Positions 10,613-31,528 of a stretch of DNA of 51,705 nucleotides are shown here, in pieces. The translations under genes were made by a program, and so were the position numbers. The notes beneath the pieces were generated by a model. It saw only the letters and a list, made by a program, of their open reading frames with translations, was not told where the DNA came from and searched no databases. The DNA comes from a virus. Its lineage: Duplodnaviria > Caudoviricetes. Location: positions 1-51,705 of the IMG/VR virus record IMGVR_UViG_3300048834_000253. One strand, written 5' to 3'. Positions within the stretch are counted from its first letter, which is position 1; each line of letters begins with the position of its first letter.

Positions 10613-13600
10613 TTAGTTTGCCGATTTCTCCATCTCCATCACCTTGTCATTGAGCGCCCGCATGTAGGTCGTTCTCGCCGCGTCAATGCGCTTGAGGGCT
10701 TCCTTGTCGTTGATGCTCTCTGACGCCAGCTTGTTGAGCTTGGTGACATTGCTGCGCACCTCGTCGTTCAGCTCGTACAGCTTCACCAGCGGGTTATCGT
10801 CAATCAGCTTGCGCACCTCATCGCCCCGGCCCTCTTTGGACAGGCCCTTGAGCTGCGCTTCCAGCTTCTCGATCTTGCTGGAGTTCTTGAAGAACCGGCT
10901 GCGCTGCAGGTCTTGGTCTTCCACCTCGCCAGCGAATCGACTCCCCAGCGGAACCTCGCGCGCCTTCAGGCCTTCGCCCTGGGCGGTCAGCACCGATGCG
11001 TTCAGGATCTTTTCCAGCTCCCGGAACACGCCACCGCCCACCGTGGTGAAGACGTAGCGCACCTCTTCGGGTGAAGGGCTGGCAAGCCCTTGGGCAAAGT
11101 CGTTCCCACCAGTCAGGCTGTTGATGGCCTTGCTGATGCCGATGTACGCCTGGCCGGTGAACGACCGCTGCGTGCCCTCGCGGCCCATGGTGAAGCCGGG
11201 CCGGGTGTCCCACGGCATGCGCTCCTTACCGATGGGCTTGCCGGTAAAGTCCGTATTGGTGGCCATATCCACGATGGGATCAATCACAGTGGGCGAGATC
11301 GTCTTGAGCGCGCCTGCTCCAGTGAAGATGTTGCCGCCACCCAGGGGGTTGAACGACCCCGCCAGCTCGCCCAAGGCGTTAAAAGACTTCTCGCCCCAAT
11401 CCTTGCCACCGCTCATCAGCAATTCGGTGACCACGCGCCCGGTGTTGGGCAGCGCATTCAGGCCGAACTGCAACGGGATGGTGATGTACTGCTTGCCAGC
11501 CAGAGGAATGATGAAGGCGCGGGCCTTGACGAACTCGGGGATTTCATCGTCCTCATACCCGGCCATGGACAGCAGCAGCGCCTGAATCACGCCCAGGCTC
11601 AGGCCGCCGATCAAAATGCGCTTGCCCGCAGGCCCTTGCAGCGCCTTGAGCGTGCGCGCCGTCCCCTGCACCGATGCGTTGAAGAAGGCGAACAGCGGCC
11701 CCATCTCGCGCCCTGCCCGCCCCTTGCGGTTGAAGTCCAGCGTCAGCTCGCGCGCCATCCGGGCAGACTCGGCGCGGCTCATGCCCTTGTCCAGTGCAGC
11801 CTTGTACGCTGACAGACGCACACCGTTTTCCAACGTGGTGTTGAAGTCGTCCAGCAGGTCCAGCACCGCATGGGCAGCAGCGCCCGGCGTCAGCTTGCCA
11901 TCCTTACCCAACTTGTCCAATTCACTCTGCACGGCGTCGGCTCGCTTGTACGGGTCAATGAACAAATCGCGGTAGCCCGTGCGTCCGCCATCGTCCTGGA
12001 ACTGCTGCCACAGGTCCGACCATGGCGTGCGCTGCGCATCGCCCCTCAAGTCCCGCGCGATGCCAATCATTGCGGGGATGGAGTCGGACAGCACCCGCGC
12101 CTGTTTTCCGGCCAGGGCGGTGTCGGTCAGGTTGACCATCGCGCCGCCCACATCCCGCACGATGTTGACCATGCCGAATGCCGGGTTGTACTGCGTGTTG
12201 ATCGATGCAAAGTAGCGCGTGGCCTTGCCCACGATGCTGCCAGCCAGATCAAGCTGCCCCAGCACTCCATCCTGATTCTTCAGGTTGCGCACCAGTCGCA
12301 CCGCCCGCTCGTTGCTGGCGTTGAACAGAATCACACGATCCTCGCCGTTGACCTTGACCACCAGCGAATTGTCCAGCCGCTTGTACATTGGGTTGGGCCG
12401 GTCAACCACCTTGCCAGATACCGGCTCAACCCCGCGAATCGTGGGCACGCCCTGCATGCCTACCTCGGCTTCCATGGGGTCAACGCCCATCCTGACCAGT
12501 TCGTTCGCAATCTGGTCAGACGGCATGGATGGCCGAATGGTCGTCCACATTTCAGCGTTGGGGTTCGTCAGCGCCAGGCCGTACAGGCTCATGGCCACGC
12601 GGTTCTTTTCCGCCCGGGTAATGGCGGCTTCGCGCTGCATCAGGATGTGCGCCAGCATGTTGGTCACTTCGCCCGTGCTGCCGGTGGCCCGCTTGGATGC
12701 CGTCCCCGTCACGCTTACACCGGCCCCGATGGGGTGGCCCGGGGTTTCCATGGCCTCATCCTTGAACAGCGGCACGTAATGCTTGTACGCACCCGTCCAG
12801 GCGTCCACTGTCTCTTGCTTCTCCAGGCCCTCACGCACCAGCACTTCGCGTGTGCCCAGTGTCAAATCATCGACCCGCTTTGCCAGCAGCTCCAGCACCA
12901 GGCGCTTGCCCTGCGTCAGCGCTGCAATGTGGTCGCGCGCTGCTTGCGTGGTCATAAGCACGCCCTGGCTGTTGGTGCCTGCGCCGCCATCGGGCATCTC
13001 GTCGTTCACCTTGGCAATCTGCGCGTTGCGCTCGGGGGCGTGCCGGGCCAGCAGGTAATCCGACAGCTCATCCTGGCTGACGTTGTTCTTGGCCATCGAC
13101 TCCAGCAACGGCTTCACCTCGGCCGACAGGAACGACTCAGTGCGCCGCGCGATGCGTCCAGGCATCAGCGTTTCCGCCAGCCGGGCATCAAACCCTTCGG
13201 TGATCTGCTTGCCAGTCGCTGCAATAGCCTCTTGCACGCGCTTGAGGTCGATTCGCCCATCCTGCAGTTCGTAGATCAGCTTGTCGGTGCGGGTCGCTTG
13301 GGGAAGCTCCCACGGGTTGGAAGGGGCGAACAGGCCCGCTTGCGCGTTTGTGGGGATGGGGGGTGGGTTGTTGCCCGCTTTGCTGTAGAGCAGCCCAGGC
13401 ACATCCGTGCCCGCATGGTCGCGGGTAATCAGTGCGCGTTTGAGGGTTGAGACTCCGACTCCATGCGCCTCAAAGCCTCCGCGAGTGCTGGCGAGATAAC
13501 GTGCAAGTTCGGAATCCGACAGGCGATTGCCCTGAATGGCGGCTCCATTGCCCACGGCGTCAGCGTCTCGGGCTGGTGTGCCCACAACATCTTGTTCACG

Positions 13601-16600
13601 CCCGTCAAATCGTCGTGGATTTTTCTTGCCTGCTGCAAGTCGCATTTCAAGTTCTGCGAGATTACCAGCGCCGATTCCTCCCGATTCATTTGCACCAATT
13701 CGGCCATCCACGGGTGCGCCGTCGCCCAGTCTTTGCCCCTCTGGCTCCAGTACGGTGCCGCCTCTGGAGTAAACGTCCCCCGTGGCGGGGTCAATTTCAA
13801 GGAATTTGAATACAGGGATGCGCTCATTTACTTTCTCCAGTTCGGCTTGTGCGTAATTCAGCCATCCAGCACCCCGCGCCATACTCCGCGCATTGGCCCG
13901 TGCCACCGCAGCAATGTCGGCCACGGTCAGTTGGTCAGCCTTCAGCAGCACGCCCTTGCCAAACAACCATGCGCGCACAGCAGCCGTGAAGTCCTGCACC
14001 CACTTGGCTACCGATGGCGGCGAATTGGCGCGGTCGTTCTCGTACTCGGTGACGATGTAAGCCGCAGCTTCTTCACCGCTGGTTTCGCCCGAACGATCCA
14101 TGCGCGCCTGCACCCGCTGGATGAAGGCATTGCCACGGTCAGCACTCAGCAACTGAGCAGCCCGTTCAAACAGCGGCTGCAGCTTGCTGTCTGCGGCCAT
14201 GTGAATGCCCACCTCGTGCATCAGCGTGCCCGGTGCGGACTCGGCGGTCAGGTTGTCGGCAATCAGGAATGATTGGCCGGTCTGCGGGTCGAAAAAGCCC
14301 TCTATGGCGCCGTCTGCGCTGCGCTTGATGTCAAGGCTGTCTGCTGTGTCGCTTTGCGTGGCTGACAAAAGCGACTGCCTGATCGCCTCAGCATCCCCTC
14401 CCGTCTTGTCCGCCCTGGCCCGCGCTGCCGCCTCAATCGCCTGCTCCTGCGTCTGCGTCAGCGTGACAAGGCCCTTGGCTTCCAGCTGGCCCAGCAGCTT
14501 GCCGTAAGCCTTGGTGATAGCGGCGCGGATGGCGGCGGCGGGGGTGCGCATGGGTTGCACGGTGCGACTCATGGCAGCGCCTGCAGGCTTGATGCTGCTG
14601 GGCACCGCCTCGTCCACCAGGTACTGCAACGCCTGGCGCTTGGTGTCGAACCGGGTGTCGCCCCAAGGCTCGCCATCCTTGCCAAAGCGCGTCAGTTGCC
14701 AACGGCCTTGCTCACTGGCCGAAGGCGTCACGATCAACATGCGCCCATCGCTTGTGCGCGCCTCGACGGCAAACCCGCTGTCTGGTAGTTGGGCCAGCGC
14801 GTCCAGCATGGCAGCTTCTGCCGCCCGTCTGGCGTCGCCCACAGCGCTGAACTCTTCCGGGGTGACAGTGCCCGGCTCGGCGTCGTAAAGCGCATCTGCC
14901 CTGCGGCTAGCCTCTTCCATGGCGGCTGCTGCACTGCTGATGGCAGGTTGGGCGCGGCTGAAGCGCACATCGCCATTGCGCGCATTAAAGCGCTGACTCA
15001 GCGGGATCACTGCACCGTCATCATCGTGCGTCACGGCATCCAGCAGTTTGCGGTTGTTCTTGGTGTTCTTGTAGCCGTAGCTCTGTCCGTCGTCATAGCC
15101 GAACTCGGCCACGCTGTTGCCGTCCCAGTACAAGTTCTTGGCGGAGGCTGGGAGCGAAATGATGCGGTATCCACCAGGTATGCTTTCCCCTTCCAACTTG
15201 GCGTACTCAAGGGACGGGGTCACCCAGTCGCCATTGCGAATGGCGCCATCCTTCACGGTTTTGGGGATGGCCCGGTACACCACCATGGCCACCGAACCCG
15301 GGCTCTTGCCTGCCGCCTTGCGCGCATCCGCTGAGCGCATGGCAGCCACCACAGCGCGGTGCGCCGCGGCTTCTTCGGGCGTGCTCACGTACCACTGCGG
15401 GTGCGTCCAGTAATCATCAGGCACAAGCCCGTTGTCACGCAGCTCATCCAGCCGGACGCCATCGTTTTCTGCGCTGGGCGCTTCGTGCTGCATGCGGTAA
15501 TCGCTGCCCACGTATCCCGCCTCGGCAGCAGCCTCATTCACCAATCGCTGCGCAGTAGCCATATCGCCGCGCTCTACAGCGGCAAGGTACTCAGCATCCT
15601 TGTTGGGCTTCGCCTTCCGGCTGAACATCAGCCCGCCCTGCCCGCGATCCGCCATCGTGGCGTTGTACAGCGCAATCGCTTTCTGATTGATCTTGTCGAA
15701 TGCGACGTGCTCCAGCATCTCAGTGGGCGCGCGCTCAATTGACGTGGTGCCACGCGAGCGAATCACAGAGTAAAGCTGCGCGCCGATCCTGTCGCCGCCG
15801 AAGTCCTCTACGGTGACGATGTACTCTCCGCTGGCGTAACGCGCGTATGGCGTAGCCTCTTGGCGTTTGGTCATATCGCTCTTGACCATCTCGCGGGCGA
15901 TCACCTTGCCGGACGCGGGAAGTTGCGCCTCTTGCTGTCGTGCAGGCGCATCAAACATGCCGCCCTGCCCAGTCAGGCTATCCAGCGGGTCTTGCCCCAA
16001 CTCGAACTCATCAGCGGCGCGCACGCTGGCCTGGGCAATGCGCTTGCGGTCTTCGTCCTTCGATGCTTGCACGTCGGCAGCGCGCTTGGCTGCGGCTTCT
16101 GCCTTGGCGGCCTGCTCTTGCGATTCTTGGAGTGCCGCTGCTTCTGCGGGCGTTTGTGATGCCAGCTCCAGCGGTTCAGGCGCTACGTTTTCAGTAGCTG
16201 CTTGCGCTTGCTGGTCAAGCGCTACGGGCTGATTTAACCCTTGGGCTGCGGGGCCTGTTGCTGCTCCGCTTTGGCTTTGGCCTTCGCTGCCAGCAGGCGT
16301 GCGACGATCTCCATTGCTTCGGGTGATGGCTGTCTCAAGGGCGGATTTTGCGGCTGCATAGTAGTCCTGCTCGGTTGCGTTGATGGTCTGCTCATGGGCG
16401 TCGAGCATGATGGATTCGGCGTCGATGCCCAGCGCATTCGCCATTTCAAGCAATGCGCGCACCTCGGCCTTGATGGCGTCTGGTGCTGCATCGTACCCGC
16501 TGGATTCGAGCATGTCATCCGAGAAATCATCCAGTGCGACAGGTTGCGTATCGCTCCATGGGTCGCCATCGGATGCCGATTCTTCCTGCGCTGCAAGGTA

Positions 16601-19531
16601 GTCATCAAACTGGGCATTGGCTTCTGCTTGTGCAATTCGTTCAATGCCGTCTGCTGTGTACTGCGGGCGGGATATGCTCGTCTTGATGAGGGCATACGCA
16701 TCATTGAGCGTTGCGCCTTCCCCCAAATAGCCGTCAGCGATCAGCTTTTGGGTTGCCTGCTCCATCGACAAGCCACGGCCACGGCCCGCGAACAGGCGCC
16801 GGTTGCCAACGCGCGGGTTGTTGTCAATGCCCAGATCGGATGCCGCGATGGCGCTCAACCCGCCTTCTGCCGCGATGAACTCGTGCGCGGCCAGTGGGGC
16901 GCCTGCCGTGCCGGTTTTGGGCTGCGACAGTCGGCGTGCAGCTTTTGCCTCTGCTGCCAGTTGCGCGGGCGTTTTCTCGGCCAGGGCATACCCGCCTTCG
17001 ACCGGCACCACACGCATCATGGGCTGCAGCTTCTTGGCGTCGCCTGCTGCTTTGCGGGTCTTGAAGGGCTTCCCGCCTTCGCTCAGCGGCGTCTGTTCGC
17101 GCCCCAAGCGCACAGACGCCGCTATCGGCTGGCCCGCAGCTTGCGCCGCTCCTTGCGCGCTTGGCGTTTGGCTTGCTTGCGTTCCAGGTTGCGCAGGTTG
17201 GGGCACATTGGCGGGGACTCCTTGGGCGGTGGGCGGGCTGCTGAGACTGGCCAAATGCTGACCAATGGGGACAGCCTCGTATTTGGCAGTGTTGATTTTG
17301 TCGGCCACGGATTTTTGCGATGTTTCCATCACGACTGCCCCCGTGGATTTATCGCGAAGCACCCAGCTTGTCGCTGGTTGGCGCGTGGCGGGGTCGATGA
17401 CGGGCGCTGCACCTACCCCAGCGGCTTGAGTTGCGGCAACTCCCGCACCGGAAAGGTCGGCGGCAGGTACTGGCGCATTAACTCCCGCGACGTCAGCCGC
17501 TTGGGCACTGGTGGCTTTGGTCTGCTGCTGGGTGTCCGATGGCGTGCGTTGTGGTGCATTTGCTGCCTCCTGGGGTGAAGATCGGGCGCGCAAGGCTTGC
17601 AACTCGGCGGCCAGCCCGCCGGTCACCGGAACACTGCCGGGCTGCGCCTGTGGCGTGGTGCTTCGCTGAGTGAAGTCAGGCGCGCTGCGCGCACGCAGGG
17701 CCTCCAGTTCGACGGCAAGCCCGGTCGCTTGTGGTTGTGCTGCCTCGGCCTGCAGGATCTGGGCGGCAACATCGGTCTGGGCAGACTGCGGCGACTGGGG
17801 TGCAACCGGGGCCGACGGGACAATAGGGGCTTGGGGCGTCGTGGGTTGGTCTTCCACGCGCGGCGCCCGGCTGCCATACGCTTCCTGCATGCCAGCCACC
17901 TTGCCCATCACCAGACCGGCAGCCGCACCCTGCCCGTAGGCCTCGCCAGCCATCTCGGATAGATTGACCCGCTGGCCTGCGCGCGACAGTTCCAGACCCT
18001 TGGCAATCGCGCCGGTGCCCTCTTCGACGCCTTCCGACACAGACTCCAATGCACCCGCCTGGCTGCCCTTGACGATCAATTCGACCGCCTTGGAAACCAA
18101 CCCGCCCTCCATCCCCTTGCCCATGGGGCGCGTCAGCAGGGATGTGGACGCCACGGCAGCCTTTGCGGCCGCGCCCTTGAGCGACGGGGGCAAGAACATT
18201 TTTTCAATGGCATCACCGCCAGGAACCAGCTTCATCGACAGCACCGACGCGCCCGTAGCCATCAGCAGCGCCCGGTTCGCCGCAGCGCCCGCCAAAATCT
18301 CCTTGGCCTGCTGCGCGCCGTGCTGTGCCTCCAGGTCCTTCCATTCGGGCTCTGACTTGAACGCCTCCACCGGGAGCTTGCTCAGTTCCTCGTAGGTTTC
18401 GCTCGCCACCGATGCGCCCTGAATACCCGCAGCCGTACCCGTGGCCGTGGCGCGCGCCAGCACCCCGGCGCCATTCTTGGCCGTCACTGCAACGCGCGCT
18501 GCCAGCTCAGACCCCGTGCCCAGCGCCTTGGCAAACGCGGCATTACCAACCGCATTGGCTGCAGCACCCGCACCACGACCGACCACGCCCCCCGCAAACA
18601 TGCCCGGCGCACTGCGCGCCAGCGTGTCAAACAACAGCGTCGGGTCTTTCAGCGTCTCAATGCCGCCGACTGCCAGCTTTTCGCGCCACCCCTCGGCGGT
18701 ACTCAGTTTGTCCTGCAGGGCTTTCCCCCGCGCCTGAATCTCGGATGATTTCTGGTCTTGCAGGACGTCCTGCGTGCCACGGATGGCCTTCAGGTAGCCC
18801 GTGTCCCAATCGCCCGTCACTGCGGAATAGGCCACGCCCGGCAGGCTGCCAACATCCAGCAGGCCCTGCGCCAGCGATTTGGTGGTGTCTCCAAACGCCT
18901 CCCCCCATGTGCGCTCAGGGGTCGCCCCCGGCTGCGCCTTCGCCGCCTCGGGCGCTGCTGCATTCTTGGGCGGCAGCTCTACAGGCGGCATGGGCGCAGG
19001 CGCGCGCAACTTCAACTCGTCGGCCGCTGCAAACACGGTCTTGAGATAGCCCTGGGTTTCCTTGGGCGCGAGCGATTGCCAATCCTCGGCGTCGTAGGCC
19101 TTGCGGTTTTCGCCCCAGTTGTAGGCCGCCACAGCCTTGCCGTAGTCGCCGCCGAACTTCTCCAGATTAGCGCGCATGTAGGCCGCAGCCCCGAAAATGC
19201 TCTCCACCGGGTCCAGCGGATTGATGCCAAAGCGCTCGGCCGTGCCGGGCATGAACTGCATCAAGCCTGCTGCACCAGTGCGGCTCTTGACCTGGCCGCT
19301 GATCACGTCGGGGCGAAACCGGCTTTCGGCAAACGCCATGGCCCGCAGCACGTCGGGGTCAACCCCGTATTCATCACCAGCCGCCTGAAAAGCTGCGTCG
19401 AACTCCTGGGGAACGGCAAAGCGCGAACCTGCTGGCGCTGGCTCAAACGCCAAAGGCTCCCGCTCAGGTGCCGATTCATCCGGCAGGGCGTCAAGGTCGA
19501 TGCCGCGAGAGGCAAGCTGGAAGAGATTCAT
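10613..19531 (-). CDS. Giant polyvalent internal-virion/ejection protein, 2972 aa (SLT, ART-like, zincin, LPD38-like)
   Basis: AESRF..GAAGLMQFMPGTA..AAYNWG (SLT); YRA..WVTPS..EFGYD (ART-like); MHEVGIH..EEAAAY (HExxH-type); DFNRKG..FFNASVQG..IPL.FG C-terminus (LPD38-like). Confidence 0.9.
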   Translation of the reverse strand: MNLFQLASRGIDLDALPDESAPEREPLAFEPAPAGSRFAVPQEFDAAFQAAGDEYGVDPDVLRAMAFAESRFRPDVISGQVKSRTGAAGLMQFMPGTAERFGINPLDPVESIFGAAAYMRANLEKFGGDYGKAVAAYNWGENRKAYDAEDWQSLAPKETQGYLKTVFAAADELKLRAPAPMPPVELPPKNAAAPEAAKAQPGATPERTWGEAFGDTTKSLAQGLLDVGSLPGVAYSAVTGDWDTGYLKAIRGTQDVLQDQKSSEIQARGKALQDKLSTAEGWREKLAVGGIETLKDPTLLFDTLARSAPGMFAGGVVGRGAGAAANAVGNAAFAKALGTGSELAARVAVTAKNGAGVLARATATGTAAGIQGASVASETYEELSKLPVEAFKSEPEWKDLEAQHGAQQAKEILAGAAANRALLMATGASVLSMKLVPGGDAIEKMFLPPSLKGAAAKAAVASTSLLTRPMGKGMEGGLVSKAVELIVKGSQAGALESVSEGVEEGTGAIAKGLELSRAGQRVNLSEMAGEAYGQGAAAGLVMGKVAGMQEAYGSRAPRVEDQPTTPQAPIVPSAPVAPQSPQSAQTDVAAQILQAEAAQPQATGLAVELEALRARSAPDFTQRSTTPQAQPGSVPVTGGLAAELQALRARSSPQEAANAPQRTPSDTQQQTKATSAQAADVAGVNAPVPAADLSGAGVAATQAAGVGAAPVIDPATRQPATSWVLRDKSTGAVVMETSQKSVADKINTAKYEAVPIGQHLASLSSPPTAQGVPANVPQPAQPGTQASQTPSAQGAAQAAGQPIAASVRLGREQTPLSEGGKPFKTRKAAGDAKKLQPMMRVVPVEGGYALAEKTPAQLAAEAKAARRLSQPKTGTAGAPLAAHEFIAAEGGLSAIAASDLGIDNNPRVGNRRLFAGRGRGLSMEQATQKLIADGYLGEGATLNDAYALIKTSISRPQYTADGIERIAQAEANAQFDDYLAAQEESASDGDPWSDTQPVALDDFSDDMLESSGYDAAPDAIKAEVRALLEMANALGIDAESIMLDAHEQTINATEQDYYAAAKSALETAITRSNGDRRTPAGSEGQSQSGAATGPAAQGLNQPVALDQQAQAATENVAPEPLELASQTPAEAAALQESQEQAAKAEAAAKRAADVQASKDEDRKRIAQASVRAADEFELGQDPLDSLTGQGGMFDAPARQQEAQLPASGKVIAREMVKSDMTKRQEATPYARYASGEYIVTVEDFGGDRIGAQLYSVIRSRGTTSIERAPTEMLEHVAFDKINQKAIALYNATMADRGQGGLMFSRKAKPNKDAEYLAAVERGDMATAQRLVNEAAAEAGYVGSDYRMQHEAPSAENDGVRLDELRDNGLVPDDYWTHPQWYVSTPEEAAAHRAVVAAMRSADARKAAGKSPGSVAMVVYRAIPKTVKDGAIRNGDWVTPSLEYAKLEGESIPGGYRIISLPASAKNLYWDGNSVAEFGYDDGQSYGYKNTKNNRKLLDAVTHDDDGAVIPLSQRFNARNGDVRFSRAQPAISSAAAAMEEASRRADALYDAEPGTVTPEEFSAVGDARRAAEAAMLDALAQLPDSGFAVEARTSDGRMLIVTPSASEQGRWQLTRFGKDGEPWGDTRFDTKRQALQYLVDEAVPSSIKPAGAAMSRTVQPMRTPAAAIRAAITKAYGKLLGQLEAKGLVTLTQTQEQAIEAAARARADKTGGDAEAIRQSLLSATQSDTADSLDIKRSADGAIEGFFDPQTGQSFLIADNLTAESAPGTLMHEVGIHMAADSKLQPLFERAAQLLSADRGNAFIQRVQARMDRSGETSGEEAAAYIVTEYENDRANSPPSVAKWVQDFTAAVRAWLFGKGVLLKADQLTVADIAAVARANARSMARGAGWLNYAQAELEKVNERIPVFKFLEIDPATGDVYSRGGTVLEPEGQRLGDGAPVDGRIGANESGGIGAGNLAELEMRLAAGKKNPRRFDGREQDVVGTPARDADAVGNGAAIQGNRLSDSELARYLASTRGGFEAHGVGVSTLKRALITRDHAGTDVPGLLYSKAGNNPPPIPTNAQAGLFAPSNPWELPQATRTDKLIYELQDGRIDLKRVQEAIAATGKQITEGFDARLAETLMPGRIARRTESFLSAEVKPLLESMAKNNVSQDELSDYLLARHAPERNAQIAKVNDEMPDGGAGTNSQGVLMTTQAARDHIAALTQGKRLVLELLAKRVDDLTLGTREVLVREGLEKQETVDAWTGAYKHYVPLFKDEAMETPGHPIGAGVSVTGTASKRATGSTGEVTNMLAHILMQREAAITRAEKNRVAMSLYGLALTNPNAEMWTTIRPSMPSDQIANELVRMGVDPMEAEVGMQGVPTIRGVEPVSGKVVDRPNPMYKRLDNSLVVKVNGEDRVILFNASNERAVRLVRNLKNQDGVLGQLDLAGSIVGKATRYFASINTQYNPAFGMVNIVRDVGGAMVNLTDTALAGKQARVLSDSIPAMIGIARDLRGDAQRTPWSDLWQQFQDDGGRTGYRDLFIDPYKRADAVQSELDKLGKDGKLTPGAAAHAVLDLLDDFNTTLENGVRLSAYKAALDKGMSRAESARMARELTLDFNRKGRAGREMGPLFAFFNASVQGTARTLKALQGPAGKRILIGGLSLGVIQALLLSMAGYEDDEIPEFVKARAFIIPLAGKQYITIPLQFGLNALPNTGRVVTELLMSGGKDWGEKSFNALGELAGSFNPLGGGNIFTGAGALKTISPTVIDPIVDMATNTDFTGKPIGKERMPWDTRPGFTMGREGTQRSFTGQAYIGISKAINSLTGGNDFAQGLASPSPEEVRYVFTTVGGGVFRELEKILNASVLTAQGEGLKAREVPLGSRFAGEVEDQDLQRSRFFKNSSKIEKLEAQLKGLSKEGRGDEVRKLIDDNPLVKLYELNDEVRSNVTKLNKLASESINDKEALKRIDAARTTYMRALNDKVMEMEKSAN
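13429..13827 (-). CDS. Nested +1-frame ORF, 132 aa, inside the giant gene
   Basis: GGAG-7 nt-ATG. The host frame loses its GC3 bias here (AGA, CGA, GGA, AAT codons). Confidence 0.55.
   Translation of the reverse strand: MSASLYSNSLKLTPPRGTFTPEAAPYWSQRGKDWATAHPWMAELVQMNREESALVISQNLKCDLQQARKIHDDLTGVNKMLWAHQPETLTPWAMEPPFRAIACRIPNLHVISPALAEALRRMESESQPSNAH
16234..16359 (-). CDS. Nested +1-frame ORF, 41 aa (MQPQNPPLRQPSPEAMEIVARLLAAKAKAKAEQQQAPQPKG)
   Basis: AGGA-5 nt-ATG in a low-complexity linker of the giant gene. Confidence 0.4.
   Translation of the reverse strand: MQPQNPPLRQPSPEAMEIVARLLAAKAKAKAEQQQAPQPKG
17122..17208 (-). CDS. Nested +1-frame ORF, 28 aa, basic (MCPNLRNLERKQAKRQARKERRKLRASR)
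   Basis: AAGGAG-9 nt-ATG. Uses preferred codons CTG/CGC/AAG. Confidence 0.5.
   Translation of the reverse strand: MCPNLRNLERKQAKRQARKERRKLRASR
17413..17559 (-). CDS. Nested +1-frame ORF, 48 aa (MHHNARHRTPSSRPKPPVPKRLTSRELMRQYLPPTFPVRELPQLKPLG)
   Basis: Perfect AGGAGG-6 nt-ATG. Confidence 0.45.
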   Translation of the reverse strand: MHHNARHRTPSSRPKPPVPKRLTSRELMRQYLPPTFPVRELPQLKPLG

Positions 19532-30708: not shown

Positions 30709-30758
30709 GTTCTCCCTTTCAGTTCTTTCAGCTTTGCCCGGTAGGTGTCTCTAGTCAT
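30705..30758 (-). pseudogene. Stranded ninG 3' remnant forming a 17-aa mini-ORF (MTRDTYRAKLKELKGRT)
   Basis: Resembles the NinG C-terminal consensus (R..YRAKLKELK); ATGA overlaps at both ends. Confidence 0.6.
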
Positions 30759-31528
30759 GCGAACCGCCCTTGTTGAAACAGCGCACGGCTTGGCTCCCAT
30801 CCTTGGCGAAGACGCCAAATCAAGCCCGCGCGGCTGACGGTTACACCAGGCTCTCGCACCCATTCCGCAGCGGTCAGCGTCTTCCCGTTGCAGGTGATTG
30901 CCACTGAGTTAGACCGCTCGTGCTTGGCGTGCGTCTTTGGCTCGTAGGGCTTGGGCTTCCGTCCGTTGTGAGTGACCTTGGGGCCGAACAGTGCCTGCTC
31001 TGCAGTCATTCCTGCCTTGATGCGGGCCCTGATAGTCGAACCACTCACCTCCACCCTTGGATCACGCGACCATTCATGCGGCGTCAGGGCAACCCCCTCA
31101 TACTCAACGCTGATAGTCCGATTCCACTGGGCCGGAGGCCTCATGCCGCGGCGCGTGTTGCAGGTGCAGCAAGTTGGGCGCAGGTTGGCCCGCGTGTTGT
31201 TCCTCACATCGGCGTCGATGTGGTCCACATGGCAAGTCGCCCAAGTCAGAGAAATACCGCACAGCTCGCAACTCAGTGGACTGTCGCCCAGGTCTGCATA
31301 CAGGACTGCGCGATGCTCCGCCACGTATCCGCTATTCCGGTGGCGGAGTGGGTGCGTTGGCTCATAAACCCACTGATACCCTTGCGGCGTCTCCTGTCGA
31401 GGCTTCGCCTTGCCGCGCTTCACTGTCTCGGTTGTGCCGTACCGGCGTTGGCGGAAATAGTGCATTTGGCACAGTTGCGCAGCCTTGTATTGCGCATCGC
31501 GCTCGCAACCTTCAACGCAGCATTTCAT
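30755..31528 (-). CDS. HNH homing endonuclease with C-terminal DNA-binding repeats
   Basis: C.MHY.R..RYG, YV.EHR, HVDHID....NN...NL...C..CN and two T..EW repeats. Confidence 0.9.
   Translation of the reverse strand: MKCCVEGCERDAQYKAAQLCQMHYFRQRRYGTTETVKRGKAKPRQETPQGYQWVYEPTHPLRHRNSGYVAEHRAVLYADLGDSPLSCELCGISLTWATCHVDHIDADVRNNTRANLRPTCCTCNTRRGMRPPAQWNRTISVEYEGVALTPHEWSRDPRVEVSGSTIRARIKAGMTAEQALFGPKVTHNGRKPKPYEPKTHAKHERSNSVAITCNGKTLTAAEWVREPGVTVSRAGLIWRLRQGWEPSRALFQQGRFA

Follow-up and report, generated by a model that had tools for sequence, protein, structure and literature searches.

A probable 132-codon gene embedded out of frame in the giant polyvalent virion-protein gene of a tailed phage

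The question raised by this locus is whether a 132-codon open reading frame (ORF) lying in the +1 frame of a much larger phage gene encodes a protein of its own. The locus is found in a virus record of the Caudoviricetes (IMG/VR record IMGVR_UViG_3300048834_000253), which is complete with 51,705 bp and 60.9% G+C; the whole of this stretch is referred to as the window. The larger gene encodes a giant polyvalent virion protein and is referred to as the host gene, with its reading frame as the host frame, and the small ORF is referred to as the nested gene with the product P0001. Embedded out-of-frame genes are classic in phages, as in Rz/Rz1 and phiX174. Overall, the 132-codon ORF was judged, with a probability of roughly 0.82, to be a real coding gene that lies out of frame (+1) within the gene for the giant, virion-packaged polyvalent protein.

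The nested ATG is situated 5704 nt into the giant gene and, as 5704 mod 3 is 1, its frame is the +1 frame (Table 1). The same-strand ORF behind a GGAG and an ATG that the initial annotation had reported was recovered as described, and the start context reads CTGGAGAAAGTAAATG with a spacer of 7 nt between GGAG and ATG. The Shine-Dalgarno (SD)-like GGAG is formed by the host codons for Leu and Glu, and a GGAG at positions -14 to -5 was found for only 52 of the 1789 ATGs on both strands of the window. An in-frame fusion from upstream is ruled out by the TAA which stands directly 5' of the nested ATG. The predicted RNA fold around the nested start was unremarkable (z -1.25), and no promoter-like site was found within 13200-14300.

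Table 1. Coordinates of the nested gene, of the features that surround it and of the giant gene in the window.
Feature	Position	Strand	Description
Nested gene, product P0001	13429..13827	(-)	132 codons and TGA, ATG start, wholly inside the giant gene
SD-like GGAG	13835..13838	(-)	7 nt 5' of the nested ATG; formed by host codons Leu-Glu
Nested-frame TAA	13828..13830	(-)	Abuts the ATG on its 5' side; the run between stops is as long as the ORF
Conserved core of the nested protein	13468..13752	(-)	P0001 residues 26-120, 95 codons; equals host residues 1927-2021, the linker (alignment A2)
Host N-flank motif AELEKVNERIPVFKFLEIDPATGDVY	13769..13846	(-)	Host residues 1896-1921; tail of the LPD37-type module; overlaps the unconserved N-terminal extension of P0001
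Host C-flank GGFEAHGVGVSTLKRALITRD	13418..13480	(-)	Host residues 2018-2038; here the conserved C-terminal module with LPD38 begins; shares its DNA with the variable tail and the stop codon of the nested gene
Identical or near-identical tract	13307..13853		Seen in contigs of three public runs, each from a different study; the sequence on either side (12900-13306 and 13862-14300) differs by ~2-5%
Giant polyvalent virion-protein gene	10613..19531	(-)	2972 codons; in the head module, with the portal gene on one side and the major head protein gene on the other

The host frame is open throughout the nested ORF and its composition changes there. The host third positions over the nested ORF are A 0.29, T 0.23, G 0.16 and C 0.33, compared with A 0.12, T 0.13, G 0.39 and C 0.36 in the rest of the giant gene (A+T 52% vs 25%). 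The switch to A/T-ending host codons noted at first reading was therefore borne out. The host segment over the nested ORF is rich in G (16.5% vs 9.0%) and R (9.8% vs 6.0%), with D at 6.8% vs 5.9%. The G+C content of the host third positions (GC3) is 0.29-0.47 over the nested ORF vs 0.73 for the whole gene, and that of the first positions (GC1) reaches 0.76-0.80. When 880 windows of 60 codons from 21 genes were compared (mean GC3 0.737, sd 0.086), the three lowest values (0.37-0.40) all fell over the nested ORF. The nested frame itself has G+C contents at codon positions 1, 2 and 3 of 0.51, 0.49 and 0.74 in the window and of 0.56, 0.47 and 0.68 in L006, a related locus described below. Scored by the phage's own codon usage, the nested frame reached -535.1 and the host frame -538.9, and among 284 sliding windows of 133 codons along the giant gene, no other had its +1 frame scoring level with the host frame, the usual gap being +72.8 (sd 25.9). 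The composition and codon-usage signal is beyond chance.

A phmmer search with P0001 against 1.84 billion representative proteins produced six matches at E≤0.001. Five of them were small, at 107-131 aa (E 5.7e-32 to 6.6e-5, 34-52% identity), and the sixth, the 1835-aa P0012 (E 4.5e-4, 18 stretches), looks like a low-complexity match. A profile search returned 10 clusters of 107-137 aa (E 3.3e-48 to 3.2e-35), and no family member or in-frame fusion of the domain was found by it among longer proteins. One cluster includes a 131-aa protein annotated at NCBI as a 'hypothetical protein' of a Propionivibrio sp. metagenome-assembled genome (MAG), and of 401 genomes drawn from the order to which this MAG belongs, only one has the family. 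P0001 itself is absent from a collection of 15 billion proteins. A family profile built without the window's sequence gave a single six-frame match in the window, at 13447-13770 (-) with E 4.8e-49. The alignment of 11 sequences had 17 invariant and 10 nearly invariant columns; the invariant core residues (alignment A2) are P39, R49, E50, I56, R68, D72, G76, K79, E87, I105, L108 and I111-A116, and the core motifs are YW, PWM, NRE.AAL.IS, HD.LTGVHK, EP.FR and IPNLHVISPALA.AL. The first 18-25 residues of P0001 are unconserved, and P0021 (115 aa, 75% identical to P0001, frame open) begins at the position of P0001 residue 18. Another family member, P0022 (JGI, 109 aa), is named 'TPP-dependent trihydroxycyclohexane-1,2-dione dehydratase' at its source, which is probably an annotation error as the name is implausible for a protein of such size and family.

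Relatives were not found in several other collections. Tblastn of the host-frame segment, P0001, P0009, P0019 and P0011 against GenBank phages gave no match, and blastn of 12800-14600 against the same phages gave a single 68-nt match only. Scans of IMG/VR with the host segment, alignment A1, P0009, P0019 and P0011 gave no true relative of the nested protein, and with the family hidden Markov model no match was obtained in L011 (15-residue match) or in L005 (30% host-frame match). A first scan of JGI metagenomes with the host segment as the query found no relative either.

DNA of the family was obtained from one genome (contig L006) and from JGI metagenomes (contigs L007, L008 and L009). Over 1154 nt L007 and L008 do not differ, which leaves three haplotypes among the four loci. 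All four carry the ORF, with 131 codons and a GTG start, in the +1 frame of a homologue of the host stretch, and in L006 the GTG is preceded at 7 nt by the sequence motif AAGGTG. An accumulation of stops in the +1 frame of homologues, named in the initial annotation as what would refute the nested gene, was not seen at 66% DNA identity to the window, and the outcome favours the gene: the nested and host frames each had 0 stops in the four loci, compared with 5-7 in the +2 frame (7 in L006, and 10 in the window). The outer gene of these loci is not giant. An upstream ORF with PBECR3 and ART-PolyVal ends in another frame, and the host-frame stretch stays open for 264 codons, has a weak LPD37 match (L008, E 0.016), stops soon after TLKRALLTRE and is followed by a DUF1643 gene. 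The frame break after the ART-PolyVal ORF (L008 502-2516, also in L006 and L009) is common to the three haplotypes, and L009 has an extra stop (W to stop) in the LPD37 remnant. Judged by sequence, the Propionivibrio-type loci look like a polyvalent gene in decay, with the small gene inside it still intact.

Substitutions among these loci were counted in both frames. L006 and L009 have 13 differences in the overlap, located 9/1/3 on host codon positions 1/2/3, host position 1 being nested position 3 (P 0.031 for the codon-position bias). Read in the nested frame, 8 are synonymous and 5 non-synonymous with a ratio of non-synonymous to synonymous rates (dN/dS) of 0.19, and read in the host frame 3 are synonymous and 10 non-synonymous with a dN/dS of 1.17. 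Across the three haplotypes, synonymous to non-synonymous changes were 8:7 in the nested frame (binomial P 0.013 against an expected synonymous share of 0.24) and, in the host frame, 4:11 in the overlap (P 0.57), 7:13 upstream including the new stop in L009, and 0:4 downstream. The neighbouring genes had 10:7 (DUF1643) and 8:4. Where the outer gene is broken, the nested gene has been kept by selection.

At the larger distance between the window and L006, with 136 differences in 399 nt (34% of sites), the constraint was resolved by region as the ratio of the proportions of non-synonymous and synonymous differences (pN/pS). For the N flank (host residues 1895-1921) pN/pS was 0.43 in the host frame and 1.84 in the nested frame, with 13/27 and 5/27 identical residues, respectively. 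For the core (nested residues 26-120) it was 1.24 in the host frame and 0.56 in the nested frame (38/95 and 52/95 identical), and for the C flank (host residues 2022-2040) 0.33 and 2.68 (13/19 and 8/19 identical). Simulations of 136 substitutions in 399 nt were run 1500 times per model. When only the host frame was kept open, the nested frame was stop-free in 0.67% of the runs, the observed nested identity (65/132) was reached in 0/1500 and the observed BLOSUM score was never reached. When only the nested frame was kept open, the host frame was open in 2.7%, and with a nested omega of 0.3 the nested identity was reproduced (67.5 vs 65) with the host frame open in only 0.33%. The regional pN/pS values and the simulations together indicate that both frames are maintained and that constraint passes from one to the other along the sequence: it lies on the host frame in the two flanks and on the nested frame in the 95-codon core. 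In this core the host frame evolves as if its openness alone mattered, and it encodes a G/R-rich linker predicted to be disordered.

The same loci bear on recoding, in which a programmed +1 frameshift on the giant mRNA would yield a truncated giant protein with the nested domain as its C-terminus. Programmed frameshifts are frequent in phage structural genes, and in L007 and L008 the nested frame is open for 31 codons further upstream, in the same frame as the upstream ART-PolyVal ORF. However, the nested frame of the window is not continuous with the upstream sequence owing to its TAA, nested-frame stops are present upstream in L006 and L009 too, and upstream of the start the nested frame has 3 synonymous vs 17 non-synonymous changes with stops arising. 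Together with the lack of in-frame fusions of the nested domain among longer proteins, this makes recoding extremely improbable, and the evidence favours a separately initiated nested gene.

AlphaFold2 (AF2) modelled the nested frame from a 6-row alignment with a mean predicted local distance difference test (pLDDT) of 75.5 and a predicted template modelling score (pTM) of 0.60, giving eight helices over residues 29-126. Residues 20-129 were mostly at pLDDT 70-94 and the first 16 residues were below 50. The host frame of the same DNA, modelled from a 4-row alignment, had a pLDDT of 46.7 and a pTM of 0.35, and its residues 31-106 were below 50 except for two single residues. The P0001 family is thus predicted to consist of small all-helical proteins with a confidently modelled fold and no known relatives. 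No usable match came from Pfam, PHROGs, NCBIfam or PADLOC (best E 0.045-0.08, single members) or from the ESM Atlas. Foldseek searches against PDB and BFVD gave nothing at E≤0.001, and the best Z in a wide VIA comparison was 3.8. The N-terminus of P0001 reads MSASLYSNSLKLTPPRG; no lipoprotein signal or lipobox cysteine was found there, the longest hydrophobic run is 4 residues, and cysteines are present at 62 and 103 only. A complex prediction of the host-frame linker with the nested protein, made without controls, scored 0.00 and is informative neither way. Overall, homologues, selection specific to the frame, codon usage and a confident predicted fold support the proposal of the initial annotation that the ORF encodes a real second protein.

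The part of the host protein that overlies the nested ORF is present in only some of the giant homologues. It is 100% identical to the window in P0003, identical at 167/187 positions in P0004 (2628 aa) and at 105/200 in P0005, where many gaps fall in mid-segment. P0006 is without the linker and has the last part of the segment only, from GGF..HGVGV onwards, so the C flank is also retained there. L001-L004 of IMG/VR match host residues 1678-1886 and then again from 2047-2069, and the whole segment is missing from them, with 133 to 2665 unrelated bases between the matching parts. LPD37 (PF18853) matches were found in P0003, P0004 and P0005 (47-49 bits), ending at profile positions 185-194 of 243, and in these proteins LPD37 ends in the host motif AEL.KV..RIP...GDVY. 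The window segment gave no LPD37 match even at E≤10, and from the sequence comparison the window retains the LPD37 tail only, with most of the module lost.

The modules upstream of the linker also differ, being HExxH and the LPD37 tail in the window, LPD37 with PBECR1/5 or LPD23 in P0003-P0005, and PBECR3 with ART-PolyVal in L006-L009. Only the linker flanks are common to all carriers of the ORF, and no enzymatic or toxin-type domain is shared. None of the small database proteins was fully compatible with P0003-P0006 as a co-encoded pair, hence none of them derives from the contigs of these giant proteins.

A threading test asked which nested proteins are permitted by the host-frame protein sequences of P0003-P0005, with a profile built without P0001 and P0021. 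P0004 has 15 host residue changes in the 96-codon core, and its best permitted nested protein, an upper bound as the test is blind to host-synonymous changes, scored 272.9 vs 274.2 for the window. Random changes giving 15 host changes lowered the profile fit to 246.9 (sd 9.8), and 0/400 of them reached the score of P0004. For P0005, both halves of the profile peaked collinearly inside the linker (z 4.2 and 3.6, with ~3300 offsets each) with 5 extra codons between them, and P0006, without the linker, gave no threading signal.

Public sequencing runs gave a population view of the locus. Part of the stretch is present in 20 runs from 10 studies (wastewater, groundwater, freshwater, river and soil), of which four (X1, X9, X14 and X20) were compared letter by letter; the best-supported differences are reported here, out of a set with 210 more. 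The contig of X1 is identical to the window over 13322-13853. The contig of X14 has 20 differences over 12900-13853, and 19 of those reported lie at or before 13306. X9 has a similar contig with ~477 extra bases at 13847-13853. Upstream of 13862 the sequences differ again. Since the ORF, the SD-like sequence and the ATG are identical in contigs of three runs from three studies, the ORF is not an assembly artefact, and a near-identical tract between flanks with 2-5% divergence suggests recent recombination between phage lineages. A mosaic junction lies at 13847-13862 (at 13853), where the contigs of X1 and X14 end, and at this junction the window is without ~195 residues of P0003/P0004 (most of the LPD37 module), between ...GWLNYAQ and AELEKV. 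The variant in X20 is diverged over 13563-13802, with a 71-nt block (13563-13635) too diverged to align, and within it a deletion and an insertion of 1 nt each, separated by 8 nt (13732-13740), compensate each other and restore both reading frames.

A recent acquisition of this tract could mean that the small gene is real elsewhere, in free-standing, Propionivibrio-type loci, and is carried here as an untranslated relic that is intact only because it arrived recently. The tract is identical or nearly so in three runs with differing flanks, none of the runs holding the stretch is recorded as RNA, and no promoter-like site lies nearby, all of which would fit a silent passenger. However, the 15 host changes of P0004, an intact giant homologue, all spare the nested fit, a result that none of the 400 simulations gave; P0021 is open, the SD-like sequence is kept at 7-nt spacing in both lineages, and embedded genes need no promoter of their own. 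A silent relic is therefore considered very unlikely, and translation of the nested gene in the window is preferred.

Several points weigh against a genuine nested gene. The length of the ORF is within chance, with 49.1% of 1000 synonymous-codon shuffles yielding a +1 ATG ORF of at least 132 aa; the probability that the nested stretch itself is stop-free is 0.039-0.075. The contrast of 8:7 in the nested frame with 4:11 in the host frame is not significant (Fisher P 0.26; a small sample of 15 sites and 3 haplotypes), and the dN/dS of the whole nested ORF between the window and L006-L009 is only 0.55-0.58. The list of family members has an ascertainment bias because protein databases hold only open, called ORFs, and the nested position could be checked in DNA for only one of the 10 clusters. 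The two AF2 runs differ in alignment depth (6 vs 4 rows), the scores from threading are upper bounds, and the ESM Atlas recognition value of P0001 is 2210, where approximately 91 of 100 known-family proteins reach 2300, a value not decisive for the reality of the gene. Finally, the tract is invariant or nearly so in three of the four compared runs, which are thus uninformative on selection, and 0/20 runs holding the stretch are on record as RNA.

Some of these points would be expected of a chance open frame in a GC-rich gene with G-rich first positions, in which case the 'homologues' would be gene-caller errors in the same frame and their similarity a shadow of host conservation. Besides the ORF length and the low Atlas value, the giant gene holds a second, longer +1 ORF of 156 aa with a junk-like product and is overlapped by antisense ORFs of up to 526 aa, and all three forward frames are 44-51% identical between the window and L006. 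Nevertheless, the host core, with a pN/pS of 1.24 compared with 0.56 for the nested frame, has no conserved shadow to cast, and host-only simulations left the nested frame stop-free in 0.67% and never reproduced its identity. Changes synonymous in the nested frame dominate among close relatives, the +2 frame is interrupted by stops (10 in the window, 5-7 in the relatives), and the predicted AF2 fold is confident. In addition, two independent annotation pipelines picked the 131-aa ORF over the host-frame ORF of 251-264 codons in related loci. A chance frame is accordingly rated as very improbable, and a selected, protein-coding nested gene is retained as the explanation of this locus.

The giant gene has the terminase, portal and major head protein genes as neighbours. 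Its product has Pfam domains SLT (lytic transglycosylase) at residues 48-145, at the N-terminus, and LPD38 at 2661-2861, at the C-terminus, and a C-terminal module of PHROGs 14770/616 starts at approximately residue 2077, with ~900 C-terminal residues in common. These domains, the PHROG match and the position in the head module identify it as a phage-type polyvalent virion protein in the sense set out in the available text of Iyer et al. 2017 (PMC5512222), of which it is a typical member with SLT, a ParB-like region, an HExxH motif and LPD38. The HExxH motif (MHEVGIHM) lies at ~14130-14150 (-), host residues ~1795-1800, in the module just 5' of the linker. It is conserved in the IMG/VR relatives, and no Pfam match was found for the HExxH module in the window's giant protein; by its sequence the module may be a candidate processing peptidase of the polyvalent protein.

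Other reading frames of the giant gene were also noted. The second +1 ORF is located at 16234-16704 (-), close to where GC3 has its second-lowest dips (~16050-16710), and has a low-complexity, P/S/R/T/M-rich product; its region falls outside the 8 lowest windows in the codon-usage test. Antisense ORFs lie opposite the giant gene at 11870-13450 (+) (526 aa), 16241-17578 (+) (445 aa) and 13463-14272 (+) (269 aa). One antisense frame of the giant gene has only 15 stops per 8.9 kb, which is typical for GC-rich coding DNA, and across the nested ORF the antisense frames have 1-3 stops in the window and 4-5 in L006. Elsewhere in the window, an HNH endonuclease-like gene at 30755-31528 (-), upstream of the terminase genes, matched several PHROG HNH families with E down to 4e-12; its top match is phrog_4160, a family without assigned function.

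The nested gene would be translated by internal initiation at the GGAG, 7 nt before its ATG, on the late head-module mRNA, by analogy with embedded phage genes such as Rz1. As to the order in which the two frames arose, the small gene would be the older frame and the giant gene would read through it with a younger, disorder-tolerant linker frame. This order is suggested because the nested frame has genome-typical codon usage, following a criterion for telling the older frame from the younger that is given in the available text of PMC8227390. As both frames have the same known distribution, as a cassette, the direction is read from codon usage and disorder only. The term 'overprinted', which the initial annotation applied to the small gene, would then probably have the direction reversed.

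As a best guess, the product would be a cytoplasmic, moron-like accessory protein that acts autonomously and is produced late in infection. An autonomous role is favoured over that of an obligatory partner of a toxic domain because the ORF remains intact and selected in the lineage with a broken polyvalent gene, and because no enzymatic domain is common to all carriers. The immunity partner or chaperone put forward in the initial annotation found no support and is regarded as a possible role. A more elaborate proposal, which we consider doubtful, is that 13386-13853 forms a dual-coding module, in which an older free-standing gene was swallowed when LPD37-side and LPD38-side coding regions were fused by a new linker frame, with the small protein serving as a dedicated partner that acts on the linker or its flanks (folding, packaging or cleavage control) and with the module spreading by recombination. 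Such spread would explain the identical 547-nt tract in lineages with 2-5% divergent flanks. An autonomous accessory protein is nonetheless the preferred role.

Known overlapping genes resemble the nested gene in part. In phiX174, gene B lies in A and gene E in D; the genome, of 5.4 kb, is strongly constrained in size, and it is the nested frames that are considered to be de novo. Lambda Rz1 lies in the +1 frame inside Rz. The likeness to Rz/Rz1 is that a small phage gene sits entirely within another gene, read from the same strand but in a different frame, with its own start and on the same late mRNA, translation being predicted in the present case (available text of PMC6139136 and PMC5295617). 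Rz1 differs in being an outer-membrane lipoprotein of the lysis cassette that binds Rz, whereas P0001 is without a hydrophobic N-terminus or lipobox and its host gene is a polyvalent gene between the portal and major head genes, not an i-spanin gene of a lysis cassette. The phiX174 overlaps are likewise internal, out of frame and in a phage, with both products functional; however, the genome here is 51.7 kb and the nested frame has genome-typical codon usage.

Outside phages, a 'modular evolution' model was put forward for hepatitis B virus (HBV), in which a short pre-existing gene between two coding regions is bridged by a new frame (available text of PMC8227390). The HBV polymerase spacer over preS/S is similar, as far as that text describes it, in that a disordered linker of a large multidomain protein is read across another gene, but HBV is an animal virus and its overlap is much longer. 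The mammalian XLalphas/ALEX pair consists of two unrelated proteins from overlapping frames of one transcript whose products bind each other (available text of PMC1186735). As described there, constraint alternates in a 'relay', as in the host-nested-host pattern found here. For polyvalent proteins, the available text of PMC5512222 contains neither 'overlapping' nor 'frameshift', uses 'nested' and 'embedded' for a hairpin structure and for peptidase domains, and describes no gene nested in a polyvalent gene. A search of the open-access literature, supplements aside, found no description of an out-of-frame gene inside a polyvalent protein gene.

Each polyvalent protein is treated as one giant polypeptide, with linkers seen as passive. 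With a conserved second gene concealed in such a linker, part of what these phages encode escapes standard annotation. As a natural case of partitioned constraint, running from the host frame to the nested frame and back to the host frame, the locus is unusually clean. It also includes a lineage with a decayed outer gene and a persisting inner gene, so that in a DNA phage it can be tested which of the two frames is older. Finally, the new small family, predicted to be helical and without a known fold relative, is a candidate for a new phage accessory function.

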